DNA of 51,903 nucleotides from Hyphomicrobium sp. (lineage in GTDB: Bacteria; Pseudomonadota; Alphaproteobacteria; Rhizobiales; Hyphomicrobiaceae): the NCBI GenBank assembly GCA_031414095.1, contig JANNUW010000024.1, positions 1-51,903 of the forward strand, in the 5' to 3' direction. The notes beneath the pieces were generated by a model. It was given only the letters and a program-made list of their open reading frames with translations, was not told the origin of the DNA and did no database searches. Made by a program: the position numbers and the translations under genes. This document shows, one piece after another, positions 12,078-51,903 of this stretch; the first letter of the stretch is position 1; each line of letters begins with the position of its first letter.

Positions 12078-12365
12078 TTTGGTTCCACTTAGCTTGGCTA
12101 AAAGACAAGTCGGCGCTGCGATCCCGAGGGGCTGCAAGTCACGTCAGCCGCTCGGTCCTCACTGCTTGTTGTTGGCCGATTGAGCTCATTTAGCGGTGCA
12201 CTATTCCGCCGTCACTTGACGCTCTGAGCCGGGCGTTTTGCGCTCAGATCCTATACTCACGGGTGCCAAACGCGCCCCATCAACGGGAGTTCCCTTGGTA
12301 GATGCGCAGCGCGTGCCTATGTGTGGAACGGATACCGGATTACAGCGGCTCGACAGCCGCGTTAA

Positions 12366-36486: not shown

Positions 36487-37548
36487 ATGACTCAGAAACC
36501 GCCGATGCTTCAGCAAGTTGAGGGAACAGGCACGGGTGCGGCAGGTTCGGCGATAGTCAAGCAGCTCGGCGATGGCGCCCGCGACCTCGGTCCCTCCAAC
36601 GCATCCGGTCCGGGCCCAGCCGCCGCTTCCACGCCGGAAATTTACGAGATGCTGGCCGAGCTTCGCCGCGATCTTGACGCGCGTCGCGCTGAGCAGCCAA
36701 GCTCGCAAGGCGGCGACGACGGTGAACTTTTTTCGATGATGTCGGATTTGCGCCGCGATATGTCGGTGCTGAAAAGATCTGCGGTCTCGATCCGCCCAGC
36801 CGGCACGTCGAGGCCTGCCGGCACCGGCGCAATTCCAGCAGCGAAGGTGCCCGCGCCGCGAGCCGCGCAGCCGCCCAGCGTCTACGTGCCGGTCTACGAT
36901 CTGGCTCCCGAGCCATCGTTCATGCGCAAACTCTTCAGCGAAGAGAAACGTCCAGCACTGTCATTGGCGACCGCGCTCGCCATCGCCGTGAGCGGACTCT
37001 ATCTGATTACCAACAGAGGTCCGGCGGCGGCGACCCTTGCGGCCGCTCCGGCGCTGGTTGCAACGGGCTCGACGAGCGTCGCGGGCGTGACCACTGGAAC
37101 GGCGCTTTTTGAAGCGCTGTCGGCCGGAGCCTCCTCGCCGCAAGGCATATCGGCGAAGGGCGTAACAGCGACCCGCGCGTTATCGCGGGCCAACGCGCAG
37201 CTCCAGATCAAAGGCGCGGCGCGCGATACGCAAGAGGCCGCCTTCTGGTTGAAGAGATATATGACAGACACTCTGGGCGATGTCCGCATGGCGCGCGCGC
37301 TGACGCAACTCGGCGCCACCTATGCCGAGCAGCAGAACGATAAGGCCGCCGGCTACGTCAAGGCGCGGCAGCTATGGGAGATGGCGGGCGCTCTGGGAGA
37401 TCCGGTGGCTATGTGCTTCTTGGGCCGTCTGTTCGAAAACGGCTGGAGCGTTGCCGCCAACAGCACGACGGCGCTGCGGTGGTTCGAACGCGCGCGCGAT
37501 GCGGGGGGCTGTCCCGGAGTCGAGGATTCGATTGCAAGGGTACAGTAG
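36487..37548 (+). CDS. single-pass membrane protein with C-terminal Sel1-like repeats
   Basis: It has a disordered N-terminus, a TM segment (ALSLATALAIAVSGLYLITN) and C-terminal Sel1/TPR-like repeats (AAFWLKRYM..., GDPVAMCFLGRLFENGWSV, ALRWFERARDAGG). The last ~150 aa are paralogous to the C-terminus of the next gene. Confidence 0.75.
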   Translation: MTQKPPMLQQVEGTGTGAAGSAIVKQLGDGARDLGPSNASGPGPAAASTPEIYEMLAELRRDLDARRAEQPSSQGGDDGELFSMMSDLRRDMSVLKRSAVSIRPAGTSRPAGTGAIPAAKVPAPRAAQPPSVYVPVYDLAPEPSFMRKLFSEEKRPALSLATALAIAVSGLYLITNRGPAAATLAAAPALVATGSTSVAGVTTGTALFEALSAGASSPQGISAKGVTATRALSRANAQLQIKGAARDTQEAAFWLKRYMTDTLGDVRMARALTQLGATYAEQQNDKAAGYVKARQLWEMAGALGDPVAMCFLGRLFENGWSVAANSTTALRWFERARDAGGCPGVEDSIARVQ

Positions 37549-37677: not shown

Positions 37678-39552
37678 TTGAAACGGATCAGTGTCCAAGC
37701 GTACGAAGATCGCTCTCAAGCCGACGGCGGGCATGCCATTTTTTTGCTTGAGGGGGTGATGTCGATTCCGAGCCGTTCGACATTCAAGTTGCGGTCGGCC
37801 GAACCCAACCAGATCGGCGCCGATGGAGCCGTTTGGCAAGACAGCGAGATCTTCGCTCTTGAATCGCGGGTCAGCGCCAAGGGGATCGAACTCGTCGTCG
37901 GTCCCGACGTGGCAGAAGATCCGGGCCTGCTGGCCGGCGCGGTCATGGAAATCGAGATCGCTGAAGCCGGATTGCGTGGCGAATTCCTGTGGCCACAGAT
38001 CACGCCACGGGCCCGGCCGAAACGCAAAAACATCGCAGCCAACCGGCCGCGGCGCGACGTGCGGCCGGGAGACGGCCATCCGCGCTCGGAAAGTTCCGGC
38101 ACTGCGGAGGGCGAACGGGTCGCCTCCGTCGCCGCGACTGAGCCGGTATCGGCTGACCGGCAAGCGGCCGTTCCGCCCGGTAGCGTGCCAGACTCCAATC
38201 GGCCTTTCGCTCCCACTGAGTCAGCGACACGTCCAGTTTCGGCCGTCCGGCCAGCGAGCGCCTTGATGGACGCTCACTTGAAGGCATTGAAAAACGCCAC
38301 ATCGGTGCCGGCGCTGCCGCTGACACTTGCTTTTAATGATGCAGGGAGATCGATCGTGCCTTTTGATCGCAAGACACCGGCGCAGTCGACGGCTGGATCG
38401 TCGAAACCTCCTCAGCCGACTGTCACCGCGGCACCCGCGGCGCCAGTTGCCGATTTGCCGGCGATCGACAGCGTGTCCGGCAAGGCCGCAGCGAGCGCGA
38501 CGGCGCAAGCACCCGAGCCCGAGTTGGCGCCGCCGCTCATCGATCCGCACGGCGCGCATGTCAATCTTTCGACGGCGTTGGTGTTCGAGTCCGATCCCAA
38601 CGATCCCAACGAGCCCAAAGCGGAGGAAAATCCCTGGGCTTGGAGAAAGGACGTCACAGCAATGCTGTCGACAAAATTTCTCGCCATGGGCAGCCCCGGC
38701 AAGCCGGGTGAAAAGGCGACATCAGCGAAGCCTTCGCAACCACCGCTTGGCGCATCTACACACCCGGTTATTATCGACAGAGCTGTGTCACGGCCGCCTG
38801 GTGTGGCCGCGTGGGTCCGCGACAACGCCGAAGCCGGATCGACATTCATCAAGCGGGCAAATACCAGCGCTTTACCGAGCGGATGGCCCACGTACGCAGC
38901 CGGGCTATGCGCGGCGCTGGCTTTAGGTGCGCTCGGCCTGCAACTGGCGGGAAAGCTGCCAGATTTTAAGGCGGCAACAGCCGTCGAACCCGCGCGCGCC
39001 GTCACGGCCGCAGCGGCACCTGGACCGTTTGCGAGCGTGCCTCCTGCCGGAACTTTCGCCGCGCCCTCGCCGGCTGACGTGGCCGGAAGCGTTGCCCAGC
39101 CGGGCACACTTTTTGACGCGCTGACAGTCGGCGAAACGTCGCCGCGGGGTACGGCCGTTGCCAATATCAGCGCGACCAAGGCGCTCGAAACGGCCAATAG
39201 CATGCTGCTTGCCGACGGCGCTGCGCGGGATTCTTCTGAAGGCGCGTTCTGGCTCAAGCGCTACATCAGGGGCGTCATTGGCGACGAGCGGAATATGCGC
39301 GTCGTCACGCAGTTGGGGTCGCTGTATGCCGAACCCACGGGTCAAGTTCCCGATTTCGAAAAGGCCCGGACGCTGTGGGAGATTGCGAGCGCTGCCGGTG
39401 ATCCGGTGGCGATGTGTTTCCTCGGCCAGCTTCATGAAAATGGTCTGGGCCTCGATCTCGACAAGAAAACCGCCTTGCATTGGTACGAACACGCCAAGCA
39501 AGCCGGCGGTTGCAGCTCGGTCGATGAAGCCATCACGCGTGTCAGGAATTGA
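37678..39552 (+). CDS. membrane protein: conserved ~110-aa N-domain, long Pro-rich linker, TM segment, periplasmic Sel1-like repeats
   Basis: TTG start is preceded by GGAGAG. The N-domain MKRISVQAYEDRSQADGGHAIFLL...LLAGAVMEIEIAEAGLRGEFLWP is paralogous from residue 1 to the N-terminus of the 48743 gene. The TM segment is WPTYAAGLCAALALGALGLQLAG. The Sel1-like C-terminus is GDPVAMCFLGQLHENGLGL, ALHWYEHAKQAGG. Confidence 0.75.
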   Translation: MKRISVQAYEDRSQADGGHAIFLLEGVMSIPSRSTFKLRSAEPNQIGADGAVWQDSEIFALESRVSAKGIELVVGPDVAEDPGLLAGAVMEIEIAEAGLRGEFLWPQITPRARPKRKNIAANRPRRDVRPGDGHPRSESSGTAEGERVASVAATEPVSADRQAAVPPGSVPDSNRPFAPTESATRPVSAVRPASALMDAHLKALKNATSVPALPLTLAFNDAGRSIVPFDRKTPAQSTAGSSKPPQPTVTAAPAAPVADLPAIDSVSGKAAASATAQAPEPELAPPLIDPHGAHVNLSTALVFESDPNDPNEPKAEENPWAWRKDVTAMLSTKFLAMGSPGKPGEKATSAKPSQPPLGASTHPVIIDRAVSRPPGVAAWVRDNAEAGSTFIKRANTSALPSGWPTYAAGLCAALALGALGLQLAGKLPDFKAATAVEPARAVTAAAAPGPFASVPPAGTFAAPSPADVAGSVAQPGTLFDALTVGETSPRGTAVANISATKALETANSMLLADGAARDSSEGAFWLKRYIRGVIGDERNMRVVTQLGSLYAEPTGQVPDFEKARTLWEIASAAGDPVAMCFLGQLHENGLGLDLDKKTALHWYEHAKQAGGCSSVDEAITRVRN

Positions 39553-41181
39553 GTGAGTATGCAGCATCGTCTCAGCGCGCTTGTGAACAGCTTACGGTCT
39601 CGGGCGGCAGCGGCCGTCCCGCGCGGCACCGCTATTTATCCGTTCGCCCTTGCGGCCGCACTTTCGCTCGTTGGCGGTGTCTGGATGCTGGGCGGCTTCC
39701 AGCGCGCGGATAGTCAAACAGCAACGGCCGCTGGTCCGGCCACCGTCACGTCCAGCGACCGGACCCATTCCGCTGGGAGCACGGCAGCCGCCCCGTCATT
39801 TTCCTTTGCCGACAACCGGCCCATCGCGGCGGCCGGGCCCGATGTCGACACACCGGTACAGATTGCTGCGGCTGCCACACAAACGGCACCGGCGTCGTTT
39901 GCCGATACGCGGCCGTTGCCGGCGGCCGAGCTGGATCGAGCGAAGGCGGCAGATCAGCTCAACGCCTCGGCTGCATCGTTTAGCGATGCACGGCCGCTCA
40001 ACGCCACGTCCTTCGAAGATGGCCGTCTGGTGGAATTGCCTCCGTTGTTTCAAGATAGGCGTCCGGTTGCCGCCCCCATATTCACCGATGAAAGACTTGC
40101 GGGCGAACCGGCCTTCAATGATGTTCGCCCCGTTGCTGCGCCCTCGTTCAACGACGACCGCGTGCTGGCGGTCGATTCCGGCCGTGAGGCAGTTCGCGAT
40201 GCAGTAGGCACCGTCGAGACGCCGGTGGCTTCGACCACCCCGCCCGCAGCGATTGTCACGGTGATGACAAAAGCTGAACCGGCAACGGCTCCCGCTTCTG
40301 CCGTCGATGCCCCGGCGGTGCCGGTAACGGCAGCATCGCCTCCAGCGGCAGCGCTCTCTGCGGCGGCAGCCGCCGATCCTGTAAAGACAGCGGGCCTGCC
40401 GACGCTGGTCGCGGTTTCACCCTCGTCAATCCGGCTCGATGCCACCGGCGCCTGCAGTGCAACTGAAATTTCAACGGAGCCGCTCGACGGCGGCCAGATG
40501 CGCATTCGCATCGCGGCTGGCTGTCACGCGGGTGAAGCCGTGCAGATCAGTTATGGCGGCGCCGAATTTATCCGCAAATTGAACGCCTGGGGCGCGCTCG
40601 ATTTTGTCCTCGATTGTTTTGCCGGAAGTGGCTCGGCAGCCGAAGTCAGATTGGCAGACGGCAGCCGCAAAACTCTGCCGGTCGTGGCCAACGATCTCGA
40701 CAAGGTTTCTAAAATCGCGGTGGTGTGGCGCGCGGCGACCAACCTCGATCTGCATGTCTTCGAGTATGGCTCGCGCGACGATGAGCCGGGTCACCTGTGG
40801 GCTAAAGCGCCATCGTCAATATCATCGGCCCTTATCCAAGCCCAGGCAGACAAGCGTGGACATGGCGTCCTGAGCGCAGTCGACGACGGCGAGACTCTCG
40901 GCGACAAGGTCGAGGTCTACACCTTCGTGCACAACGACGAGCAGGCGACGGGCGCGATCTCGATGGCGCTCGATTACGAATCGCGCGGCGAAAAACCCTC
41001 AGGCGCAAACTGCGGCTCCGGCGCGCTGGCGGAGGTCGATTTCCAGGTCAACATTCTTCCCCGTAATGGTCAGGTCTCACGCCAAGCCGGTATTTTGACC
41101 CGTGTCGATTGCGGTTCGACTATTCCGCGCGAAGCCCGCTTCAATCAATCGGCGTTGCCGGTTTTGCGAATTAAGAAATAG
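39553..41181 (+). CDS. membrane-anchored periplasmic protein: F-x-D-x-R-P degenerate repeats plus Cys-containing C-domain (hypothetical)
   Basis: It starts directly after the upstream stop (GTG 39553, or ATG 39559). The N-terminal anchor is PFALAAALSLVGGVWMLGG, followed by eight short repeats. The ~250-aa C-domain (LDGGQMRIRIAAGCHAG...NLDLHVFEY...VEVYTFV...ALDYESRG) is paralogous to the C-terminal half of the 48743 gene. Confidence 0.75.
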   Translation: MSMQHRLSALVNSLRSRAAAAVPRGTAIYPFALAAALSLVGGVWMLGGFQRADSQTATAAGPATVTSSDRTHSAGSTAAAPSFSFADNRPIAAAGPDVDTPVQIAAAATQTAPASFADTRPLPAAELDRAKAADQLNASAASFSDARPLNATSFEDGRLVELPPLFQDRRPVAAPIFTDERLAGEPAFNDVRPVAAPSFNDDRVLAVDSGREAVRDAVGTVETPVASTTPPAAIVTVMTKAEPATAPASAVDAPAVPVTAASPPAAALSAAAAADPVKTAGLPTLVAVSPSSIRLDATGACSATEISTEPLDGGQMRIRIAAGCHAGEAVQISYGGAEFIRKLNAWGALDFVLDCFAGSGSAAEVRLADGSRKTLPVVANDLDKVSKIAVVWRAATNLDLHVFEYGSRDDEPGHLWAKAPSSISSALIQAQADKRGHGVLSAVDDGETLGDKVEVYTFVHNDEQATGAISMALDYESRGEKPSGANCGSGALAEVDFQVNILPRNGQVSRQAGILTRVDCGSTIPREARFNQSALPVLRIKK

Positions 41182-41189
41182 GGGCCGCT

Positions 41190-42821
41190 GTGAAGAAATG
41201 GCACCTGTGGATCGCGGCCGCGCTTTCAATGGCGAGTTCGCCCATTGCAACGGCTTGGGCGGGCGCGGCGGTCGTGCTGCGCCTCAAAGACACCGGCTTT
41301 GAATTTTCAGGCGAGCTAAAATCCTTCGATGGTTCCAAGTATGTCGTCGCAGCTCCCGCGTTTGGCGTGCTGTCGCTCGACGCCGCGCGCTTCGATTGCG
41401 AGGGCGAAGCGTGCGGGCGAGCCGCGGGCGGGACCAAGTTTGAGACGTCGGCTACCGCATCGCCGGCACCGTCGGCGATATTCACCATAGAGGCCAACGC
41501 CGGCGGCCATCAGACGTTCGCCATCGACGGCTCGGCTACTATCGGCCACGAGTTGATGCCCCAGCTCATCCGCGATTACGCCAGCAGTTTGGGCGGCGCG
41601 GCCAAGCAGATCATCGGCGGCGCCAGCGGCAGCGTGCGCTTCAAAATCACCGACGCGCGCGGCAGTGAACTATCGGACGTCGAACTGAGGCGCCGGAGTT
41701 CGACGGACGCCTTCGGTGCGCTCATCGCGGGCCGCGCAGATATCGGCATGTCGAGCCGTCCGATCTCAGCGTCCGAAGCGGCCGCCATGCCAGCCATGGC
41801 CGGCGGCGTTCACGGCGCGGGCGGCGAAGTCGTTCTCGCGCTCGATGCCCTCGCCGTGCTGGTTGCTCCCGGCAATCCGGCGGCGTCGATCTCGATGGAG
41901 GCGCTCGCCAAAGTCGCATCGGGCAAATTTACGAACTGGTCGCAGCTTGGTCTGCCGGCGGGACCGATCAAGCTCTACGCCGGCAGTCGTTTGTCAGGCG
42001 CGGGCGAAGGTTTCGACGAACTGGTGCTGAAGCCTCGCGGACTGACACTGGCCGCGCGGGCAACGCAACTGCAAACGGACGCCGAGTTGTCGGATGCCGT
42101 CGCGCGCGATCGCCGGGCCATTGGAATCACCTCGCTCGCGTTCTTGCGCAACGCCAAGTCTCTCGCCATCGCCGATGACTGCGCAATGACCACCGCGCCA
42201 TCAATTTTTTCCGTTAAATCGGAAGAGTATCCGCTCGGCCGCCGACTCTATCTCTATTCAAAGGGATTGGCAGACAACTCCGTCGCGCGCGGGCTTCTGA
42301 CATTTGCAGGTTCGCAGACCGCCCAGGCCAGTGTGCAGACCAGTCAGTTTATCGACCAGTCGATCGAACTGTCCGATTTTGTCACTGAGCGCGCACGTTT
42401 CGACCGAGCGATTAAAGGCGCGCTACGCGAGACGGAGCGCGAGCAAGCGCGGGCTGTTACTGCTGCCCTGAAAGGCGCGCGGCGGCTGTCGGCAACGCTG
42501 CGCTTTGCATCGGGCTCATCCCAGCTCGATGCCAAAGCACGCGATGACGTGGCGCGTGTGCGCGAGCTGCTGGTCTCGCCAGCGCTCCGAGGCAAGACCG
42601 CGCTCTTCGTCGGGTACACCGATAGCATCGGCAGCGCCAAGGCTAACAGAGACTTGTCATACCGCCGCGCTGTTCAAATTCGCGATGCTGTGTTGGGCGA
42701 ACGCCCTGCCGGCAAAGCGCCCGTTGTGGTCGGCGGCGGGACGTTGGCACCCGTCGCGTGTGATGCAACGGATAATGGGCAGCGCCTCAACCGGCGGGTC
42801 GAGGTATGGCTGCGAGATTGA
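41190..42821 (+). CDS. periplasmic PstS-like substrate-binding domain fused to OmpA-like peptidoglycan-binding domain
   Basis: GTG start lies 8 nt after the upstream stop. Signal peptide is MKKWHLWIAAALSMASSPIATAWA. PBP (PstS-like) motifs are IDGSATIG, ALAVLVAPGNP, SGKFTNWSQLG, AIGITSLAF and EYPLGRRLYLY. The C-terminal OmpA motifs are FVGYTDSIGSAKANRDLSYRRA and NRRVEVWL. Confidence 0.8.
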   Translation: MKKWHLWIAAALSMASSPIATAWAGAAVVLRLKDTGFEFSGELKSFDGSKYVVAAPAFGVLSLDAARFDCEGEACGRAAGGTKFETSATASPAPSAIFTIEANAGGHQTFAIDGSATIGHELMPQLIRDYASSLGGAAKQIIGGASGSVRFKITDARGSELSDVELRRRSSTDAFGALIAGRADIGMSSRPISASEAAAMPAMAGGVHGAGGEVVLALDALAVLVAPGNPAASISMEALAKVASGKFTNWSQLGLPAGPIKLYAGSRLSGAGEGFDELVLKPRGLTLAARATQLQTDAELSDAVARDRRAIGITSLAFLRNAKSLAIADDCAMTTAPSIFSVKSEEYPLGRRLYLYSKGLADNSVARGLLTFAGSQTAQASVQTSQFIDQSIELSDFVTERARFDRAIKGALRETEREQARAVTAALKGARRLSATLRFASGSSQLDAKARDDVARVRELLVSPALRGKTALFVGYTDSIGSAKANRDLSYRRAVQIRDAVLGERPAGKAPVVVGGGTLAPVACDATDNGQRLNRRVEVWLRD

Positions 42822-43059: not shown

Positions 43060-46000
43060 ATGCCGTATAACGGGGACACCGCCGGCTTAGAGCCTCCCAG
43101 TGCCTACGGCCTAGACAGCACCGATGGCGAGACTCAGCCAGGCCGCGACGCCGTGACTTTGATACCCAACAGTTCGATTCAGTTTCTCAACAGGACCATT
43201 GAGGCCGATGCGGCCGCCGCGGTAGGCCGCCGCTTTTTTGAGGATACGAATGCCGCTGCCGACAGCGACGGCGCCGTTCTTTACACAGTGAAGCTCGAAG
43301 ACGACGGATCGTTTCATCATCCCGTCACCAACCTTGTCGCCGATGTTCGTCAAACCTACGCTATTGATGGCGTCGCAGCCCTCGATGCCTTCCTCGACAC
43401 TTGGCTGCCGGTTCCCTACATGCGTATGCTCGAGGGAGAGGAAGGCGAAACTTACCTCGACGAGGGCCCCTCGAACTGGGCGCGGATTCACATCAGCCGC
43501 AGCAATGCCAGCGACGAGGCGCCGATCAGCCATCGGATGGTGCTCGCCATCGACACGACGTGCTGTGCCAAGCAACGCGGACGCACGCGCACATTTGCGG
43601 CGCCCTCGCTCGAGGATGCCGAGCACGGCGGCGTCTTCCGGTTCAGCGACGACGAGGCCGAAATTGCGTGGTTCGTTACCGAGGCGTGGGTCGACGACTG
43701 GCTGCGCGAAACCTATGCCGCACAAAAGCTGCCGGCTGGCGGCGCGAGCGAAGTCGATCAAGCCGAGTTCGAGGGCTCCGAGCCTTCGGCCCTTGAATAT
43801 CTCGGCCACTACCTCACGCTTCTTGCGGTTTTGAAGCAGGCCGTCGGTCTGCCCGACATTCGCCTTCAAGCGCTCGGCCGCAGCTCCAACCTCGCCAGCA
43901 GTGTCGGCGTCGATCTCGTCGTCGATATCGGCAACAGCCGCACTTGTGTTCTACTGAGTGAAACAGGCAAGGCCGTCGCGGGTCACGATGATCTCAAATG
44001 TCAGCTGCTGGCGCTGCGCGATTTCGATCAGCCCTGGCGCGAGCACAGCGGCCTGTTCTCCAGCCGCATCGAATTTTCGCGAGCGTCCTTCGGCAAGGAA
44101 TCGTTGTCTCGCTGGAGCGGGCGCACCAATGCGTTTTATTGGCCGAGCCTCGTGAGAGTGGGTCCGGAAGCGCAACGGCTCGTTTCGCAAAGCCACACGA
44201 CGACGGATATCACCGGGCTGTCGGGGCCGATGCGTTATCTGTGGGACGATCAGCCAGGTGATCAGCCGTGGCGATTTGCGCGAACGCTCGACAATGCTCC
44301 GCGGCGGCGCGCTTTGGTGTCGGGGCCGCTGCTCGGATTCATTTCTGAAACCGGCGATGTGCTGCCCGAGGGCAGTCGCGCCGGTTCGACCACCAAGCCG
44401 CGCTTTTCGCGCTCGTCGCTGCTGACGTTCTTTGGCAACGAGATCATCATGCAGGCAATCGTCGCAATCAATTCGCCGGATTACCGGGCCAACAAGCAGC
44501 GTGCCGATGCACCGCGCCGCATTGAGCGGATTTTGGTTACCGTGCCGTCTGGTGTGCACCCGCGTGAACGTCACATCATGCTGCAACGGCTGCGTGCGGC
44601 GGCTCAGCTCACTTGGGATGGTCTGGGCTGGCAGGGCGTGCCGGGCGCCGCGCCGTTGCCTTTGGTCAGTCTCGTCGAAGACAACGCCACAAACGCGCAG
44701 ACCGCCTATTTGTACAACGAGATCGAACACAAGTTCCGCGGCAAGGCGTCGGAGTATTTCGATCTCATGGGCAAGGCCCGGCCCGGCCACCGTTCGGCCC
44801 GCGCCATACGTGTTGCGAGCCTCGATATCGGCGGCGGCACCACGGGATTATCGGTCAACAATTGGGAACTGCAGTCGAAGGGCATTGCGCGCGCTCCATT
44901 GGCCGTTGATGGCTTCTCGGTCGGCGGCGACGATATTCTGAAGCGCATCATCGAAGCCCATGTCATGCCCGCGATCGAACGCGGCTTGAGCGAGAGCAAG
45001 CTTGGCAAGCCAAAGCGCTTTCTCGACGACATCATTGGCGGCAAGGCGAACGGCCGCCCCTCATGGATCGCCGAATTCGGCAGACGCTTTGCGGCCGAGT
45101 TCGCGATGCCGGTTGCACTGGCACTGCTCAATGAAAGCCGTGAGGCCCGCGCCGCGGGCGATGACGTCCTAGTCCGGCGATCGTTCCGGCAACTGCTCGA
45201 AGCCGCCGAATTTATGCCAAAGGCTGTGATCGAGGAATTCGACGAACTTGCCGCCGACGAAGGCGCTGACGGGTTTGCAGTGCTCGATGCCGGCATAGAT
45301 GTGCGCCATCGCGATCTGAAACAGACGATTGGCGAAGTTCTCACTCCGCTTCTCAGTAACACCGTGCGCATCATAGAGGCGCTCGATTGCGATCTGGTGC
45401 TGCTGTCGGGTTGGACGACGTGCCTGCCGCCAGTTCTCGATGCCTTACTGGGCGGATTGGCGACCCAGCCAAACCGCATCGTAGCGCTGCACGGCATGCG
45501 CGTGCATCCGTGGTATCCGCACCTCGACGAAACGGGCGTAAAAATCAAGGATGCCAAATCGGTGGCCGCAGTCGGCGCGCTGCTCGCCAGTCCGAAGGCA
45601 TCGAACGGCGATAGCGGCTTTACGATTATCGCAGCGCCGGCCGGGCCCGAATGCCGCCGGCTGTTCGTCGGTAGGCTTGGTTCGGATGGACTGGTCAGAA
45701 ACGATCAGATGCTCTTCGTGTTCGATGAGGCCGCCGCCCCCCTGCAAGGCAAGGCCGGTAGCGATGCACAATGCACGATCAAGGCCGATCTGCCGGCGGT
45801 GCTCGGTGTGCGCCGCCTGGCACTCGAGCGATGGCCGGCGTCCCCGCTATTTGTCATTGATCTCAGTGATCTTAATGCCGCAGATCGCCCAAAAATGCCC
45901 GTCGAGGTCACGCTCGAGCGGGTTGCAGGCGAGACAGGGCAGCCTGATGAGTTACGTATTGTGAAGGTCCGGGATGGTCATGGCAGTAGCCTGCCGCCCT

Positions 46001-46080
46001 CGGACCTGGAGATTAGATTGCAGACACTGACCGCGCGAAATGGACACTGGTCCGACACCGGCGCGATTTTGACTGCATGA
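43060..46080 (+). CDS. srfB: SrfB-like protein with actin/HSP70 (ASKHA) ATPase motifs
   Basis: It is 1006 aa with no signal peptide or TM segment. The N-terminal VTLIPNSSIQFLN and the size recall the SrfB family. The ASKHA motifs are phosphate-1 DLVVDIGNSRT (aa 289-295), phosphate-2 LDIGGGTTG (aa 589-595), VGGDDILKRI, and adenosine motif DLVLLSGWTTCLPPV (aa 778-790). The family call is from memory, not a search. Confidence 0.65.
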   Translation: MPYNGDTAGLEPPSAYGLDSTDGETQPGRDAVTLIPNSSIQFLNRTIEADAAAAVGRRFFEDTNAAADSDGAVLYTVKLEDDGSFHHPVTNLVADVRQTYAIDGVAALDAFLDTWLPVPYMRMLEGEEGETYLDEGPSNWARIHISRSNASDEAPISHRMVLAIDTTCCAKQRGRTRTFAAPSLEDAEHGGVFRFSDDEAEIAWFVTEAWVDDWLRETYAAQKLPAGGASEVDQAEFEGSEPSALEYLGHYLTLLAVLKQAVGLPDIRLQALGRSSNLASSVGVDLVVDIGNSRTCVLLSETGKAVAGHDDLKCQLLALRDFDQPWREHSGLFSSRIEFSRASFGKESLSRWSGRTNAFYWPSLVRVGPEAQRLVSQSHTTTDITGLSGPMRYLWDDQPGDQPWRFARTLDNAPRRRALVSGPLLGFISETGDVLPEGSRAGSTTKPRFSRSSLLTFFGNEIIMQAIVAINSPDYRANKQRADAPRRIERILVTVPSGVHPRERHIMLQRLRAAAQLTWDGLGWQGVPGAAPLPLVSLVEDNATNAQTAYLYNEIEHKFRGKASEYFDLMGKARPGHRSARAIRVASLDIGGGTTGLSVNNWELQSKGIARAPLAVDGFSVGGDDILKRIIEAHVMPAIERGLSESKLGKPKRFLDDIIGGKANGRPSWIAEFGRRFAAEFAMPVALALLNESREARAAGDDVLVRRSFRQLLEAAEFMPKAVIEEFDELAADEGADGFAVLDAGIDVRHRDLKQTIGEVLTPLLSNTVRIIEALDCDLVLLSGWTTCLPPVLDALLGGLATQPNRIVALHGMRVHPWYPHLDETGVKIKDAKSVAAVGALLASPKASNGDSGFTIIAAPAGPECRRLFVGRLGSDGLVRNDQMLFVFDEAAAPLQGKAGSDAQCTIKADLPAVLGVRRLALERWPASPLFVIDLSDLNAADRPKMPVEVTLERVAGETGQPDELRIVKVRDGHGSSLPPSDLEIRLQTLTARNGHWSDTGAILTA

Positions 46081-48722
46081 GTGGAGCGGTTGGCGTGATG
46101 AATACAGTTGAGTCCAGGCTGCAGTTTGCTTGCAAGCAGGTGAGCGGTGCTGCCAGCGAGATGCTGGATTGGATCGACGACAATCCCAGTATCGTCGCGA
46201 CCGAGCGGCTGTCGATGCTGCACGAATTCTATGGCATCGACGTACGCGCGGCTGGCCTCGGGGCTGCCGTCAATCAACCGCCCTGCGTTGCCTTCGTGGG
46301 TCCGAGCCGGTCGGGCAAGACGCAAGTCTTCACATCGCTGATCGAGCGCGGCCGCGGCCCGCTCAATATGCGTTTTGACGGAATTCGCGAGCAGGTCGAT
46401 TATCAGCGGCTGATCGTGCCGGACGGTTCCAAGCAGGGTGCCTCGATGGTCATCCGGCTTTCGGAGCAGAAAAAAACACCGCCGCAGAATTTCCCCATCC
46501 GGGTGCGGCTGCTGTCGCTCGCCGACGTCATCAAGGTTCTTGGCAATGCGTTCTTTACCGCGTGCAAGGACCGGCAGCCGGCGCCGAGTTTGGCCGACGT
46601 TCGCAGCATGCACGCGCGCGTTACGGCCAAGACGGCGGACAGTCCCGTCGCCGGTTTGACTGAGGGCGATATCTGGGAGGTGCGCTCGTACTTCGCCAAG
46701 CGCTTCGGCGACGAGCCGATTTTCCGTGCGTTGTCGGCGGCCGGATTCTGGCAATCGCTGGCGACGCTGGCGCCGTATCTCTCGAACGCGGCGCGCGGCG
46801 AGTTGCTGGGTCTCATGTGGGGCGGCCTGGAGCCGTTCCGGCTGGCGTTCACATCGCTTGCTGAAATTCTGGCGAGCCTGGGCGGTAGCCTCGAGGCCAA
46901 CTGCGCGCTCGATTCTATTCTCAGTCTCGATCCCCGCACCGGCAAACTGCTGCGCCGCGAAGACAGCATCATCAACGCGCAAACCATCGACGGCTTTGTC
47001 GGCTCCGACGATCAGTCGGTGCTGGTGTGCGGAGAGTTCGGCAATTGGGTTTCGATCAGCCGCTCTGGTTTGGCGGCTCTCGCCGCCGAAGTGCGGCTAC
47101 CGGTTCCGGGCTGGTCGAGCGAGGTTTTGGAAAAAGCGGACCTGCTCGAATTCCCCGGCATCGATCCGCGCGAAAGCATCCCCAATCTCGACCGCACGCT
47201 GAATCGCAAGCCAGCGCTTTTGGCGCAACTTTATGCGCGCGCCAAGTCTGTCTACCTGCTCGATCGCTACACCGAGGAACTCGCCATTACCTGCATGGTG
47301 GTATGCATCGATCCAGCGAGCGTCCAGGTCGGCGAGTTGGCGGGCCTCGTGTCGGAATGGATTGAACGCTCGCATGGCCCTGACGCCATCGCCCGCGAGC
47401 AGCAGGATACCGGGTTGTTCCTGGCGTTCACGAAACTCGACAAGGATTTCGCCGACGTGTCGCGCGGCGTCAAGGAACGCAAGATCGATTGGGACCGCCG
47501 CATCGGCGACATTCTCATCGAAGGCTTCGGGCGCGGTCACAGTTGGCCGCTCGAGTGGACGCCTTCGCGGTCGTTCGACAGTATTCATCTTCTGCGCAAT
47601 CCCGGCTTCAAAGCCAAGCAGGTCTGCGATTACTCGCGCGAAGGACGCGAGATCGGCTTCAAGCCCGGCCAGCCGGAACGCATCGCGCGCGCAAATAGAG
47701 AGTTTTTGAAGAGCGAGATCGTACGCCGTCACGTTTCGGACCCGATGAACATCTGGAACGAAGCCCTGGCGTTGAACGACGGCGGCATCACCTATCTCGG
47801 CCAATCGATCGCTGGCGTCTGCGATAAGCGCGTTAAGGTCCGCCAGATCGTGACGGCGCTGAACTCGCTGCGCCAACTGATGAAGGACCGGTTGCAGCGT
47901 TATTACCTCGCCGATAATTTCGAACTGCAGCGCGACAAGCGTCATACCTCGGGGTTGCTCGTCGTACGGCGGCTGAAGTTTTGCGCCGAGCGCCGCCGTC
48001 TCGGGCACCTGATACGGGCTTTCCAACTATCGGAAGCGGAGTTCGCCGACGTTCTGCAGAACATCGAAGTTCGCAGCCATCTGCCCACCGCATCGGAGAA
48101 GGCCTCTGCACAGGCGGCGGGCATGAACGGAGCAGGCGCCAACGGCAGCGTGACCGAGCTCCGCAAATCCGATACCGCCGCCGAGGCATTGTTGTTTGCC
48201 CGCACGTCGATCGACCATTGGATCGATGCCGTCCGGTCGACTGCGCAGGCGGCGGGCGCGTGCCAGCGCTTCGAGATGCCGCGTCAGGCACTGCTATCTC
48301 TCGTCGACGAGCTGATCGTGGGGGCGACGCGCATGGAGTTCGAGCACCGCGTTGCCGCGCACATCGAGTCTGCCATCCTCAACGAGGCCGACAAAGACGC
48401 GCGGCTCGCCAAGGCCGCGATCTGCGTCGCCGAGGCAGTCGGGGGCTACGTCATGCGGCTTGGATTCGATGATATCTTCTCCAACAGCCATCCGCGCCGC
48501 AAGGGACATGCGCAAAAGCCGATCTTTCCGCCGCGCAATGCAATCTCGCTCGCCGACCTCGATGATCAACCGAGCCCGGAGACAGAATTTTATTCCGACT
48601 GGTCGCAGGCCTTCATTACCATGGTCGACGATAACGCCGCCGGTTTGCGCGAGCGTGATATTGAAGACGAACAGAACCAGAGGCTCGGCCAACTGCTGAG
48701 ACTTCTGGAAACACCCATCTAA
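46077..48722 (+). CDS. srfC: SrfC-like P-loop protein with dynamin-type GTPase motifs
   Basis: The ATG overlaps the upstream stop (ATGA). G1/Walker A is GPSRSGKT (aa 75-82), G3-like is DLLEFPG (aa 355-361) and dynamin-type G4 is TKLD (aa 452-455). It is 881 aa and cytoplasmic. Its position after a SrfB-like gene matches the srfB-srfC arrangement. The family call is from memory. Confidence 0.6.
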   Translation: MSGAVGVMNTVESRLQFACKQVSGAASEMLDWIDDNPSIVATERLSMLHEFYGIDVRAAGLGAAVNQPPCVAFVGPSRSGKTQVFTSLIERGRGPLNMRFDGIREQVDYQRLIVPDGSKQGASMVIRLSEQKKTPPQNFPIRVRLLSLADVIKVLGNAFFTACKDRQPAPSLADVRSMHARVTAKTADSPVAGLTEGDIWEVRSYFAKRFGDEPIFRALSAAGFWQSLATLAPYLSNAARGELLGLMWGGLEPFRLAFTSLAEILASLGGSLEANCALDSILSLDPRTGKLLRREDSIINAQTIDGFVGSDDQSVLVCGEFGNWVSISRSGLAALAAEVRLPVPGWSSEVLEKADLLEFPGIDPRESIPNLDRTLNRKPALLAQLYARAKSVYLLDRYTEELAITCMVVCIDPASVQVGELAGLVSEWIERSHGPDAIAREQQDTGLFLAFTKLDKDFADVSRGVKERKIDWDRRIGDILIEGFGRGHSWPLEWTPSRSFDSIHLLRNPGFKAKQVCDYSREGREIGFKPGQPERIARANREFLKSEIVRRHVSDPMNIWNEALALNDGGITYLGQSIAGVCDKRVKVRQIVTALNSLRQLMKDRLQRYYLADNFELQRDKRHTSGLLVVRRLKFCAERRRLGHLIRAFQLSEAEFADVLQNIEVRSHLPTASEKASAQAAGMNGAGANGSVTELRKSDTAAEALLFARTSIDHWIDAVRSTAQAAGACQRFEMPRQALLSLVDELIVGATRMEFEHRVAAHIESAILNEADKDARLAKAAICVAEAVGGYVMRLGFDDIFSNSHPRRKGHAQKPIFPPRNAISLADLDDQPSPETEFYSDWSQAFITMVDDNAAGLRERDIEDEQNQRLGQLLRLLETPI

Positions 48723-48742: not shown

Positions 48743-50308
48743 GTGAAAAAAGTCACTGCAGAGGCTTTCGAAGATACGAGCCGCCCGGAGGGTGGGCATG
48801 CCGTGATCCTGATCGTGGGATTGGGCGGCGTGTCCGACCACCCGACGTTTCGCTTGAGGCCTGTCGATTCCGGCCTTGCCGCCGATCATCGCGGCCTATG
48901 GGCTGGCCGGCCCGTTTCGCCATTGGCAACCCGTCAGACAGAACGGGGAACCGAGTTTGTCGTCGGGCCCGATATCGTCGACAATCCGTTGCTGCTGGCC
49001 GGAACTGCGGTTTCGATCGAAATTCCCGAAGCCATGGTGCGCGGCGAATTCCTGTGGCCCAACGTAACGTCGCTGGCCCAGCCCAAGCGCCGCCATGTCG
49101 TGTCGTCGCGCCGGTCGCGCACGCCGGAGCCGGCGGAACAGCCCGGCCTCGACGTAAGTATGGCCGCACCAATTGGCGTTGACGACGGGCTGGCAACCGA
49201 GCAACTTCCGGGCGTCTCAATGCAGCTGCCCGCTGTTGTCGTGCCCGGCCATGAACTCATTGCGTCCGGCGAGCAAGAGCAGCCGAATGCCGACGCGGTG
49301 CTGTTGCGGTCTGCGCACCGCTCTGGTGGGTGGGCGGCCGAGCAGAGCCACCGAAGCGGCAAGCGCTGGTTCGCCTCGGTCGCGACGGCCTGCGCAGTTG
49401 TGATCGGATTTACTCTGCTGGTGCAGTCTGTGCGCGAGAAAGCGGCGCGGGAAGCCGATGAACTGGACGTTGCCAGCGTCAGCCAAACCGTGCGCCAAGA
49501 CGCCGTGGCGGCCGCAGTCGGCGCCGTGATGAAACCGTCGCAAGCCACAGCCGTTCAACTGCCGCCGTTGCCGGTCAGTTGCGAACTGCCGTCAATTTCG
49601 AGCGATCCGCTCGACGGCGGCCGCATGCGGCTGCGCTTCGCATCGGCCTGTCATGCCGGACAGAAGGTCAAGCTCAGCTACGGCGGCGCAGATTTTGTCC
49701 GCGACGTCGACAGCGCCGGAGCTTTCGATGATGTCGTCGACGGTTTCGCGGGCCCGGCAAGCAGCGTCGACATCGTCTTTCAAGACGGTAAAACACAGAC
49801 CGTGAAGATGGCCGCCAACGACTTCAATCGCATCACCAAAATTGCGGTGTTCTGGCAGGCGCCCGTCAATCTCGACCTGCACGTGTTCGAATATGCCGCT
49901 AAGCCCCAACAGAAGGGGCACATATTTGCCAAGGCACCATCGGACGCGACGGCGGCTCAAGACGCGGTCTCGGCCGATCACCGCGGCCATGGTTTCATGA
50001 GCACACTTGGCGACGGCACGAGCGACCATCGCATGGTCGAAGTCTACACCTTGCTGCACCACGGGGAGCAGGTCTCGGGTCTCATCACCATGGCGGTCGA
50101 CTATGAAACCCGCGGTGACACGCCGAGTGCTAGCACCTGCCGGGGCGGCGCACTCGCAGAGATGCCGTTTCAGATCAGCGTGCTCGACCGGCGCGGCCAG
50201 ATTTCCACTCAGGCCGGTATTCTCGCGGCCGCCGAGTGCGGCAAGGCGCTCGACTCCAAGACGCGTTTTGACGACAGCGTTTTAACTCCGATCAAGATTG
50301 GCAAATGA
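48743..50308 (+). CDS. single-pass membrane protein fusing the N-domain (as in 37678 gene) to the Cys-containing C-domain (as in 39553 gene)
   Basis: GTG start lies 20 nt after the srfC-like stop. The N-domain is MKKVTAEAFEDTSRPEGGHAVILI...LLAGTAVSIEIPEAMVRGEFLWP. The TM segment is WFASVATACAVVIGFTLLVQSV, preceded by RSGKR. The C-domain is LDGGRMRLRFASACHAG...NLDLHVFEY...VEVYTLL...AVDYETRG. Confidence 0.75.
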   Translation: MKKVTAEAFEDTSRPEGGHAVILIVGLGGVSDHPTFRLRPVDSGLAADHRGLWAGRPVSPLATRQTERGTEFVVGPDIVDNPLLLAGTAVSIEIPEAMVRGEFLWPNVTSLAQPKRRHVVSSRRSRTPEPAEQPGLDVSMAAPIGVDDGLATEQLPGVSMQLPAVVVPGHELIASGEQEQPNADAVLLRSAHRSGGWAAEQSHRSGKRWFASVATACAVVIGFTLLVQSVREKAAREADELDVASVSQTVRQDAVAAAVGAVMKPSQATAVQLPPLPVSCELPSISSDPLDGGRMRLRFASACHAGQKVKLSYGGADFVRDVDSAGAFDDVVDGFAGPASSVDIVFQDGKTQTVKMAANDFNRITKIAVFWQAPVNLDLHVFEYAAKPQQKGHIFAKAPSDATAAQDAVSADHRGHGFMSTLGDGTSDHRMVEVYTLLHHGEQVSGLITMAVDYETRGDTPSASTCRGGALAEMPFQISVLDRRGQISTQAGILAAAECGKALDSKTRFDDSVLTPIKIGK

Positions 50309-51903
50309 TGTTTGGGCGACGCGATATACGGGGAGAACCTATTCCAGGCAAGCATCGCAGCCGGCCGGCAGTGCGCGCAGCAGCCGCCGTTTGCGCTCTC
50401 GTGCCGCTGCTGGCCTCGCAGACGCTCGCCGGCGAAGTCACGCTCAAGATGAAAGGCGGCGATCTGGAAGTTGCAGGCGAACTCGTGGCCTTCAACGGCC
50501 TCAAGTATACCATCACCGCTCCCGCGTTCGGCACCATGACACTCGAAGCGGCGCGCTTTGAATGCATCGGAGCCGATTGCACCCGGCTCAGTGTGGCTCC
50601 CGCGCTGGCGCCCGAACGCCTCGATCCTTCAGCACCGGGCGCCTTCACGGTGCGTGGTTCCGCTTCGATCGGCTCGGGATTGATGCCAGCGCTCATTCGC
50701 GGCTACGCCAACTCGCTCGGCGCGTCGATGACACAGATCGTCGGCACGTCGCCGGGCGAATCGAAGTTCAAGCTCGGCGATGCCGCCGGCGCTGAACTGG
50801 CAACCATCGTCGTGCAAAAAGAAGGGTCTGCGGCAGCCTTCGCCGCGCTCGCCCAGCCCGATACGATCGCCATATCTGATCGCGTTATCGCCGAACAAGA
50901 GGTGGCAGGCTTGGGTGCCTCGGGCGGCCGCATCCGCACACCCGAAAACGAGCACGTGCTCGCCGACGACGCGCTCGCGGTCATCGTATCGCCCGACAAC
51001 GCAGCCGTCTCCATGCGCGAGGATACGATCGCCAAAGTTTTTGCAGGTCAGTTGACCGACTGGTTCGATCTGGGGGTCTCGGGCGGAAAAATCACGCTCT
51101 ACACGATGGCGCCTGTGAGCGAAGTACAAAACGTCTTTGCGAATTTGGTACTGAAGCCGCGCGCGCTGACGCTGTCGGATCAGGTCCGTGTCGTCGAGAC
51201 CGAAGGCGATGTCGCCGATGCCGTGGCGCGCGATCCCAACGGCATCGGCATTACGTCGCTGGCTTTTCTGCGCAACGCCAAGCCGCTGAACATCGAAGGC
51301 AGTTGCGGGCTCATCACCAGGCCGTCGCCGTTCTCGGTCAAGTCAGGCGAGTATCCGCTGCGCCGGCGGCTGTATCTCTACAACGCCAAAACGCTTGATC
51401 AGCCGGCCGCGCGCGGGCTTTTGCGCTATGCGCTCTCGAATGAATCGCAGGCTGAAATTGCCGCCAACCAGTTCGTCGACCGGTCCATCGAAACGCTCAG
51501 CCTCGATGATCAGAAATGGCGGATGGCGCATGCCGCCAATGCGCCCGCACCCGTGTTTGACGCCGAACAGATGCGCGCTCTGCTCGCCGACGTGAAGGGC
51601 GCGCGGCGGCTGTCATTGACTTTCCGTTACGTCACCGGCACGACCGATCTCGACGCGGGCTCGCGCGAAAACGTGGCGAGGCTTGCGACGCTGCTGCAAG
51701 GACCGCAGTACGCCGGCAAAAAGGTCTTGCTGATCGGCTTTACCGACGGCGCTGGTCGGTTGCAGGCGAATATGAGCACGGCCAACAAGCGCGCTCAGCA
51801 AATTCGCACCGCGGTGTTGGCCGGAAGCGGCGGTCACGTCAACGTCGCCGGGATCGATGTGCGCGGGTACGGCCCCCTAGCGCCCGTTGCGTGTTCCGAC
51901 ACC
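50305..51903 (+). CDS. second PstS-like substrate-binding / OmpA-like fusion protein, 3'-partial
   Basis: This ORF is not in the track because it runs off the window. I translated it by hand and found no stop from 50305 to 51903. The ATG overlaps the upstream stop (ATGA). Signal peptide is AVCALVPLLASQTLAGE. PBP motifs are VRGSASIG, ALAVIVSPDN, AGQLTDWFDLG, GIGITSLAF and EYPLRRRLYLY. The OmpA-like start is LIGFTDGAGRLQANMSTANKRA. It is a paralogue of 41190-42821. Confidence 0.8.
   Translation, partial: MMFGRRDIRGEPIPGKHRSRPAVRAAAAVCALVPLLASQTLAGEVTLKMKGGDLEVAGELVAFNGLKYTITAPAFGTMTLEAARFECIGADCTRLSVAPALAPERLDPSAPGAFTVRGSASIGSGLMPALIRGYANSLGASMTQIVGTSPGESKFKLGDAAGAELATIVVQKEGSAAAFAALAQPDTIAISDRVIAEQEVAGLGASGGRIRTPENEHVLADDALAVIVSPDNAAVSMREDTIAKVFAGQLTDWFDLGVSGGKITLYTMAPVSEVQNVFANLVLKPRALTLSDQVRVVETEGDVADAVARDPNGIGITSLAFLRNAKPLNIEGSCGLITRPSPFSVKSGEYPLRRRLYLYNAKTLDQPAARGLLRYALSNESQAEIAANQFVDRSIETLSLDDQKWRMAHAANAPAPVFDAEQMRALLADVKGARRLSLTFRYVTGTTDLDAGSRENVARLATLLQGPQYAGKKVLLIGFTDGAGRLQANMSTANKRAQQIRTAVLAGSGGHVNVAGIDVRGYGPLAPVACSDT

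Follow-up and report, generated by a model that had tools for sequence, protein, structure and literature searches.

Here we describe a gene cluster on a 51,903-nucleotide contig of Hyphomicrobium sp. (JANNUW010000024.1, assembly GCA_031414095.1; this whole stretch is the window) in which the proteins SrfB and SrfC are flanked by what appear, from sequence, to be members of a modular adaptor family. The finding is a conserved envelope cluster around SrfB/SrfC, with the same putative adaptor domains either fused in one gene or encoded by neighbouring genes; it is not a case of a single gene cut in two. The cluster occupies 36.5–51.9 kb on the plus strand, and its genes, lettered A to H, stand in the order A, B (an N-terminal domain, here the N-domain, joined to Sel1 repeats; N+Sel1), C (a transmembrane (TM) segment followed by a C-terminal domain, here the C-domain; TM+C), D (a PBP_like_2 domain joined to an OmpA-like domain; PBP-OmpA), SrfB (gene E), SrfC (gene F), G (N-domain and C-domain fused; N+C) and H (a second PBP-OmpA protein). 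Many Proteobacteria encode SrfB and SrfC, and the two are routinely given the annotation "virulence factors", but we know of no mechanism for them. The srf operon as such was already known; the arrangement here is a new variant of it, with two domain families for which the databases hold no models.

A preliminary description of the window, made by eye from its sequence, had read B and C as the split counterpart of the fused gene G. The homology behind that reading is real. By BLASTP, residues 1–132 of B align without gaps with residues 1–132 of G (51/132 identical, 39%, E = 7e-30), in agreement with the earlier estimate of about four identical residues in ten from residue 1 onwards, and residues 300–542 of C align, again ungapped, with residues 279–521 of G (116/243 identical, 48%, E = 5e-84), the somewhat higher identity that had been expected for this part. 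The two matches, both much stronger than expected by chance, cover different, non-overlapping parts of G, which is the pattern of a Rosetta-stone pair. The fission of one gene is too simple a description of it, however: B and C are each complete bitopic proteins. The architectures originally assigned hold up, with B composed of N-domain, TM segment and Sel1 repeats, C of a TM segment, eight FxDxR repeats and the C-domain, and G of N-domain, TM segment and C-domain. A, B, C and G contain one hydrophobic segment each. The F-x-[D/N]-x-R motif is present in eight copies in C (residues 85–205), mostly at a spacing of 11 residues, and in no copy in G; these FxDxR repeats, conserved at the protein level only, were not picked up by a DNA-level search for tandem repeats. 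Sel1 (PF08238) scores 37.3 bits in B (residues 576–610) and 31.0 bits in A, against a gathering cut-off of 30.7, and only this one Sel1 unit of B is above the Pfam threshold. The last ~170 residues of B (455–623) share 49% identity with the C-terminal end of A (E = 4e-49).

Some further features of A and B may be noted here. Gene A is an additional TM+Sel1 paralogue that lacks an N-domain, the N-domain hidden Markov model (HMM) giving no match to it, and its cytoplasmic part (36487–36960) contains two short helical motifs that resemble each other, EIYEMLAELRRDLDARR and ELFSMMSDLRRDMSVLKR. Upstream of the B-type gene in three related loci (L003, L021 and L024), nothing corresponding to A was seen. 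The linker of B contains the sole DNA-level tandem repeat within 37.6–41.2 kb, a 9-bp unit in three copies (CGATCCCAA, 38592–38618) that encodes DPNDPNEPK-type residues. At about residues 319–340 of the same linker (38630–38700), which is otherwise of low complexity and predicted to be cytoplasmic, lies a conserved motif, W-A-[WF]-[RK]-K-D-x3-M-L-S-[TK]-K-F-[LF]-A-[LM]-G, which is also found in four other long N+Sel1 clusters (P0026, P0065, P0075 and P0078) and may form an amphipathic helix or serve in binding. The public gene call for B (P0130, 597 amino acids (aa)) begins at Met28 (window 37678–37761). We regard the upstream TTG (37678) as the real start, because residues 1–27 align with the N-domain of G and of all relatives.

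What the preliminary description missed were the genes between the two copies. The SrfB/SrfC operon context was found by Pfam: gene E matches PF07520 (SrfB) with 703.8 bits (E = 5e-211, spanning 30–1003), and gene F, directly downstream of it, matches PF10139 (SrfC, Virul_Fac) with 573 bits (E = 1e-171). Neither protein has a hydrophobic segment. The ATG of F overlaps the stop codon of E (ATGA), the ATG of H overlaps the stop codon of G, and a gap of 20 nt separates SrfC from the start of G. It is from this operon context, as read from gene matches and positions, that the functional reading of the split/fused relationship is derived. The translation of SrfB contains VDIGNSRT and LDIGGGTT, which we take to be the phosphate-1 and phosphate-2 motifs of actin/Hsp70-fold (ASKHA) ATPases, and SrfC is presumably a P-loop nucleoside triphosphatase (NTPase; the assignment is to dynamin-like GTPases), judging from its Walker A sequence GPSRSGKT.

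The gene preceding SrfB is the PBP-OmpA gene D. SrfA is absent from the position upstream of SrfB, and phmmer with SrfA-like queries from Rahnella, Cereibacter and Mesorhizobium returned nothing among A–H at E ≤ 10. In D, PBP_like_2 (PF12849) is matched with E = 1e-19 and OmpA (PF00691) with E = 2e-11 (44.3 bits vs. a gathering cut-off of 27.2), while H was identified by homology to D alone (phmmer E = 2e-111). Against the PstS-family model TIGR02136, D scores 97.8 bits, below the NCBIfam cut-off of 206.6, and it is assigned to the PBP_like_2 fold family only. The OmpA-like ends of D and H also match the TssL-long-form, MotB and ZorB models weakly, all far below the family cut-offs, and PADLOC gave no defence-system match beyond the weak MotB/ZorB-like OmpA match in D. 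In both D and H the PBP domain is preceded by a conserved domain of ~60 residues with two cysteines (41190–41500 and 50380–50600; e.g. GELKSFDGSKYVVAAPAFGVLSLDAARFDCEGEAC and GELVAFNGLKYTITAPAFGTMTLEAARFECIGADC) that lies outside Pfam coverage.

The family is rare, yielding 32 clusters when 5.8 billion proteins were searched with G. A scan of one genome per species across 185,579 species, with an alignment of eight sequences as the query, returned 10 loci, all in Hyphomicrobiales-type metagenome-assembled genomes (MAGs): Hyphomicrobium sp., "Devosia" MAGs and one Bradyrhizobiaceae MAG. A tblastn search with G against 72,556 plasmids gave no match. Fetched loci were annotated with N- and C-domain HMMs together with the Sel1, PBP-OmpA, SrfB and SrfC sequences of the window. 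The seven-gene order N+Sel1, TM+C, PBP-OmpA, SrfB, SrfC, N+TM+C, PBP-OmpA was found in at least eight other Hyphomicrobiales-type assemblies (loci L001/2, L003/4/27, L010, L011, L012/15, L013/14, L021 and L029/31/33), and this order is kept across divergent SrfB proteins (phmmer E from ~1e-85 to 0). Among the N-domain loci whose flanks were long enough to judge, 13/15 have SrfB/SrfC no more than 10 kb away.

Other loci vary the arrangement. To judge by gene order, the most telling of them is L030, which reads SrfC, N+Sel1, C-only, PBP-OmpA: here the split pair stands at the post-srfC site that the fused gene occupies in the window. The order is N+Sel1, SrfB, SrfC, N+C, PBP-OmpA in L024, N+Sel1, SrfB, SrfC, N+PBP-OmpA in L019 and L032, SrfB, SrfC, N+PBP-OmpA in L018, and SrfB, SrfC, N+Sel1 in L023. 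L020 (Rhodomicrobium vannielii) has a C-only gene followed by PBP-OmpA, and L005 has N+Sel1, C, PBP-OmpA with no Srf genes within 10 kb. The proposal that the N-domain and C-domain cooperate, which the preliminary description had drawn from the window's two copies, is strengthened by the conserved synteny and by the positional equivalence seen in L030. In GCA_031367895.1 (L005 11118–12827, L006 8819–10528), gene callers have cut the C-domain gene into a 227-aa gene and an antisense 238-aa gene; one open reading frame (ORF) at that locus holds a complete C-domain (HMM E = 7e-100).

How the N-domain is combined with other domains was surveyed more widely. In a search of 1.84 billion representative proteins, its profile matched 297 clusters at E ≤ 1e-3 and 218 at E ≤ 1e-10, and among the best 150 of the 297 clusters the domain was N-terminal in 150/150. 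The 201 family proteins that we collected are a mixed sample of several searches, so that their counts are not frequencies; local HMMs classified them as N+Sel1 (110), C-only (33), N-only (29, mostly short fragments), fused N+C (24) and N+PBP_like_2+OmpA (5). The commonest N-domain architecture sampled was N+TM+Sel1 (110/201 vs. 24 fused). Fused and split forms, first noticed side by side in the window, thus both recur in other genomes (24 fused vs. 110 N+Sel1 and 33 C-only). In L017–L019 and L032 the N-domain is fused straight to PBP_like_2 plus OmpA. Two or more copies of FxDxR were found in 7/33 C-only proteins, 0/24 fused proteins and 0/110 N+Sel1 proteins. The N-domain is, as far as these predicted architectures tell, an interchangeable N-terminal module.

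Trees of the two domains bear on the age of the copies. In a first, small, midpoint-rooted neighbour-joining (NJ) tree the fused form looked derived. In larger bootstrapped NJ trees, the placement of the C-only clade relative to the fused sequences had <40% support, and rooting the N-domain tree on a Mesorhizobium homologue reversed the picture. A claim about the direction of change, fusion or fission, was withdrawn on account of this low deep support and the effect of rooting. The repeat-bearing upstream C-only proteins form a clade (bootstrap 92/100), as do the closest fused relatives of G (bootstrap 100/100). The small unbootstrapped tree separates the D-type from the H-type PBP-OmpA proteins and groups the N-fused PBP-OmpA proteins with the H-type. 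The N-domain tree intersperses fused and PBP-fused members with N+Sel1 proteins, and they were monophyletic in 0/40 replicates. From the branching of these sequences we conclude that the window's two copies are old paralogues and that partners have probably been swapped more than once.

The preliminary description had also placed the N-domain in the cytoplasm and the C-domain in the periplasm, and the positive-inside and cysteine statistics of the whole family agree. Lysine and arginine are more abundant before the TM segment than after it in 16/22 fused proteins (the reverse in 3) and in 70/107 N+Sel1 proteins (the reverse in 17). Cysteine is missing from the N-domain in 127/168 proteins, four or five cysteines are present in the C-domain in 46/57, four of them being invariant across alignment A1, and in 108/110 the Sel1 region contains two, neither more nor fewer. 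The N-domain begins at residue 1, and 90–400 residues lie between the N-terminus and the TM segment; no signal peptide precedes the N-domain in any N-domain protein. There is thus statistical support for a predicted cytoplasmic N-domain and a predicted periplasmic C-domain and Sel1 region. AlphaFold2 (AF2) models from family alignments show the C-domain as two β-sandwich subdomains (predicted local distance difference test (pLDDT) 84.7, predicted template-modelling score (pTM) 0.83) and the N-domain as a small sandwich of about seven strands (pLDDT 84.0). For the N- and C-domains of G and C there was no Pfam (even at E ≤ 10), NCBIfam or PADLOC family, and profile searches of the PDB with both domains returned only E ≥ 0.25. 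Neither domain shows any sign of an enzyme.

The reading that we favour, with modest confidence, is that 36.5–51.9 kb forms one conserved envelope-associated cluster, in which one-pass adaptors would tether the cytoplasmic SrfB and SrfC to interchangeable periplasmic or peptidoglycan-binding modules. B, C and G would be single-pass inner-membrane proteins, with an N-domain of ~120 aa in B and G, one TM segment and a periplasmic module; that module would be Sel1 in B, a disulfide-containing double β-sandwich in C and G, and PBP_like_2 plus OmpA in other genomes. The N-domain may act as a cytoplasmic handle that docks the soluble SrfB/SrfC NTPases at the inner membrane. On the periplasmic side, the Sel1 repeats, the C-domain and the PBP+OmpA proteins D and H, which are predicted to be secreted on their own, would associate with one another and with peptidoglycan. 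OmpA-like domains bind peptidoglycan, and solenoids of Sel1 or tetratricopeptide repeats (TPR) bind extended peptides. The outcome would be a trans-envelope assembly for which the window carries two periplasmic sets, B+C+D and G+H. In the split version, the covalent link between N- and C-domain in G is probably replaced by a non-covalent one, and our guess is that the periplasmic Sel1 repeats of B bind the FxDxR repeats in the linker of C. A bolder proposal, which we consider possible but hold more tentatively, is that the N-domain is a new cytoplasmic docking family that couples SrfB/SrfC through one TM segment, that the alphaproteobacterial Srf proteins are trans-envelope machines or sensors and not secreted toxins, and that the split, fused and OmpA-fused variants map the contacts between subunits.

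Several observations weigh against an envelope assembly of this kind. N-domain genes occur without SrfB/SrfC within 10 kb in L005 and L025. The FxDxR motif is missing from 20/33 C-only proteins, a majority, which means that no general contact between Sel1 and FxDxR is possible. Searches of the PDB with both models using Foldseek gave only generic tandem immunoglobulin (Ig), fibronectin type III (FN3) and adhesin matches (TM-score ≤0.4, best E = 2.8e-4 and 2.4e-2); no function can be read from these, because they are generic β-sandwich matches with low TM-scores. Pfam and PDB searches with SrfB and SrfC returned only Srf families, and the actin-fold and GTPase labels come from short motifs. In Rahnella, the enterobacterial srfABC operon includes SrfA but lacks any N-domain gene, and the adaptor therefore does not accompany Srf proteins everywhere. 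The analysis shows the homology, the architectures, the synteny that is conserved, the alternative fusions and a statistical case for the topology. Every physical interaction, including the docking of SrfB/SrfC and the Sel1-repeat contact, and the overall function are things that we infer.

The junction of B and C calls for a different explanation to be considered. The stop codon of B (TGA, 39550–39552) directly precedes the GTG of C (39553), abutting it in the same frame, as would be seen if the two were halves of a once-fused gene that a nonsense mutation or an error in sequencing had interrupted, leaving a pseudogene or a gene expressed by TGA read-through. We give this explanation almost no credence. 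B ends in a complete TM+Sel1 module that is absent from fused proteins and is the part of B 49% identical to A, C has its own N-terminal TM segment, and N+Sel1 is the commonest architecture sampled. Read-through would give a protein with two TM segments and a cytoplasmic C-domain, which conflicts with the four invariant cysteines. The N+Sel1/C-only pair also recurs in many assemblies with other spacings and frames (L001, +7 nt; L003, +12 nt; L021, +5 nt; L022, overlap of 4 nt). Pseudogene and read-through were rejected on this varied spacing, on the TM+Sel1 end of B and on the TM segment of C. The in-frame abutment of B and C is not conserved in other loci. At the start of C, the GTG (39553) is followed by an ATG (39559) in the frame of B, with AGGA 6 nt 5′ of the GTG, and either codon is a candidate start.

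Two other explanations accept the genes as intact and differ over what they do. We consider it unlikely that they encode independent envelope proteins of shared ancestry that form no assembly, their clustering being due to tandem duplication of an operon segment and silent on any SrfB/SrfC complex. Such independence would suit the C-only/PBP-OmpA pair of L020 and the N+Sel1, C, PBP-OmpA group of L005, neither with SrfB/SrfC nearby, as well as the repeated swapping of N-domain partners in the tree, as for a generic anchor; it is hard to reconcile with a gene order conserved across divergent SrfB, with coupled start and stop codons, with three covalent fusions (N–C, N–Sel1 and N–PBP/OmpA) that join the same set of modules, and with the positional equivalence of the split pair and the fused gene after srfC (L030 vs. 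the window). More improbable still is a variant of the SrfABC toxin, with SrfB and SrfC as exported effectors and the membrane and OmpA proteins as an export or immunity apparatus. No SrfA homologue was found among the window proteins by phmmer, Pfam and NCBIfam scans of the cluster revealed no secretion-system gene, channel or ATPase-translocase, and the hosts are free-living Hyphomicrobiales-type MAGs. The case for a toxin comes from Xenorhabdus, where lysates with SrfA/B/C are claimed to be cytotoxic and the three proteins co-precipitate (PMC6950479), and from an earlier prediction of SrfC as an effector (PMC3608642), whereas the phenotype of Salmonella srf mutants is a swarming defect (PMC4219756).

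The coordinates of the genes and their parts are given in Table 1. A scan of 36–51.9 kb for promoters and terminators gave counts not above those in shuffled sequence. Upstream of 36 kb, translations read by eye look like housekeeping functions: a very large glucan-related ORF, a DNA ligase/helicase group, betaine synthesis and pyruvate dehydrogenase. Adjoining the srf cluster and divergent from it is a gene for a 345-aa membrane protein (34969–36006, minus strand) that contains a HAMP domain and matches TorS-like sensors weakly, but in which no kinase or methyl-accepting chemotaxis protein (MCP) signalling domain was found. Farther away, a 665-aa ORF (10140–12137, minus strand) has a signal-peptide-like start, ~300 residues of low complexity rich in Pro, Ala, Lys and Glu, and a C-terminus that reads as OmpA-type (EGHTDAVGSEEDNLTLSDRRAQ); it has no relation to the srf finding.

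Table 1. Genes and predicted protein features of the srf cluster; res, residues.
Feature	Coordinates	Strand	Description
Gene A	36487..37548	+	353 aa; cytoplasmic N-region without family match, one TM (res 157-175), Sel1-type C-terminus
Gene B	37678..39552	+	624 aa, TTG start; N-domain, long low-complexity linker, TM, Sel1 repeats
B N-domain, res 1-124	37678..38049	+	predicted cytoplasmic beta-sandwich; BLASTP to G, N-domain HMM E 5e-49
B transmembrane segment, res 407-425	38896..38952	+	Kyte-Doolittle window 1.73
B Sel1-repeat region, res ~455-623	39040..39549	+	predicted periplasmic; two conserved Cys
Gene C	39553..41181	+	542 aa; short basic N-tail, TM, FxDxR repeats, C-domain
C transmembrane segment, res 25-43	39625..39681	+	hydrophobicity
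C FxDxR repeats, about res 83-205	39799..40167	+	eight copies, ~11-residue motif s-F-x-D-x-R-P-h-a-a; predicted periplasmic linker
C-domain of C, res 298-542	40444..41178	+	two beta-sandwich subdomains, four invariant Cys; HMM E 2e-117
Gene D	41190..42821	+	543 aa; signal-peptide-like N-terminus, PBP_like_2 (PstS-type), OmpA-like peptidoglycan-binding domain
Gene E = SrfB	43060..46080	+	1006 aa, no TM; DIGNSRT and DIGGGTT motifs; PF07520
Gene F = SrfC-type	46077..48722	+	881 aa, no TM; Walker A GPSRSGKT; PF10139
Gene G	48743..50308	+	521 aa; fused N-domain, TM, C-domain
G N-domain, res 1-124	48743..49114	+	similarity to B, HMM, AF2
G transmembrane segment, res 209-227	49367..49423	+	Kyte-Doolittle window 2.14
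G C-domain, res 277-521	49571..50305	+	similarity to C, HMM, AF2
Gene H	50305..51903	+	>530 aa, cut by window end; PBP_like_2+OmpA, paralogue of D

Because the split pair and the fused gene sit in a conserved SrfB/SrfC operon, the arrangement suggests modular membrane adaptors as the link between SrfB/SrfC and the cell envelope. In one alphaproteobacterial lineage, this locus and its relatives, SrfB/SrfC are always accompanied by predicted single-pass membrane proteins with shared cytoplasmic and swappable periplasmic domains, and the alternative fusions N–C, N–Sel1 and N–PBP/OmpA may be read as a natural wiring diagram of likely contacts. Domain shuffling and Rosetta-stone pairs are ordinary and nothing is overturned here; the value lies in testable contacts for an obscure pair of proteins, and the adaptor reading would shift the Srf proteins from effector or toxin towards an envelope-associated NTPase machine.

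Which known systems does the cluster resemble? In the srfABC operon of Salmonella enterica and Xenorhabdus stockiae, as here, SrfB and SrfC are adjacent, translationally overlapped and matched over their full length by Pfam, and their biochemical function is obscure in both. The window differs in lacking SrfA and in its host, which belongs to the Hyphomicrobiales-type Alphaproteobacteria, and an enterobacterial srfABC operon (L009) lacks the bitopic N-domain and PBP_like_2+OmpA proteins that flank SrfB/SrfC here. In Deltaproteobacteria and Xenorhabdus, srfBC adjoin trans-envelope regulatory genes of the type VI secretion system (T6SS) (PMC3608642, PMC6950479). The few published findings on srf genes are compatible with the adaptor reading. 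The TagQRST/PpkA module beside srfBC in other bacteria is a likeness taken from the literature, and the window has no T6SS or Tag genes. Like the TssL/TagL, MotB and ZorB anchors, D and H end in an OmpA-like domain, but they have a PstS-type PBP and a signal peptide in place of a TM stator or baseplate part.

Two analogies concern layout. In type IV pili and type II secretion, an actin-fold protein of the cytoplasm is joined to a single-pass membrane protein that contacts other envelope components in the periplasm, the parts being encoded by separate genes in PilM–PilN and by a fused gene in GspL. By analogy the layout is the same, with parts split in one system and fused in another. However, no sequence or fold relationship was detected, the handle here is a predicted β-sandwich of ~120 aa and not a short peptide, what is split or fused is the handle with the periplasmic domain and not the ATPase, and there is no sign of a pilus or secretin. 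Periplasmic Sel1 proteins include the Hcp family of Helicobacter, and the bitopic PodJ of Caulobacter has periplasmic Sel1/TPR repeats and a peptidoglycan-binding domain. The likeness lies in a conserved cysteine pair per Sel1 region, in a bitopic plan with a cytoplasmic N-terminal part and periplasmic Sel1, and in the link to peptidoglycan binding. The N-domain is unrelated to the coiled coil of PodJ, and peptidoglycan binding would reside here on a separate OmpA-type protein or on an N-domain fusion.

The last comparison is with srf clusters on two plasmids, Cereibacter sphaeroides p.A and Mesorhizobium japonicum pMLa, both of which differ from the window in keeping a SrfA-like gene and a serine protease upstream, and in what lies downstream: VWA and ABC-transporter genes in Cereibacter and PAN-domain genes in Mesorhizobium, not the C-domain, Sel1 or PBP-OmpA. 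The post-SrfC gene of Cereibacter matches the N-domain weakly (24%), which is suggestive. That cluster (L007 2441–18601), which besides its SrfA-like gene and serine protease has a VWA protein and an ABC transporter pair after SrfC, resembles TagS/TagT-type neighbours from the literature. In Mesorhizobium, the protein encoded immediately behind srfC begins with a remote homologue of the N-domain (hhalign 92%, E = 5e-7; hmmsearch E = 3e-6). This protein (L008 13817–15567) has 322 aa, and the remainder behind the N-domain-like N-terminus is homologous (E = 1e-45) to the 239-aa product of the following gene, which starts with a signal-peptide-like sequence and is followed by PAN-domain proteins. 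A module of this 239-aa type may be another periplasmic partner of the N-domain handle.

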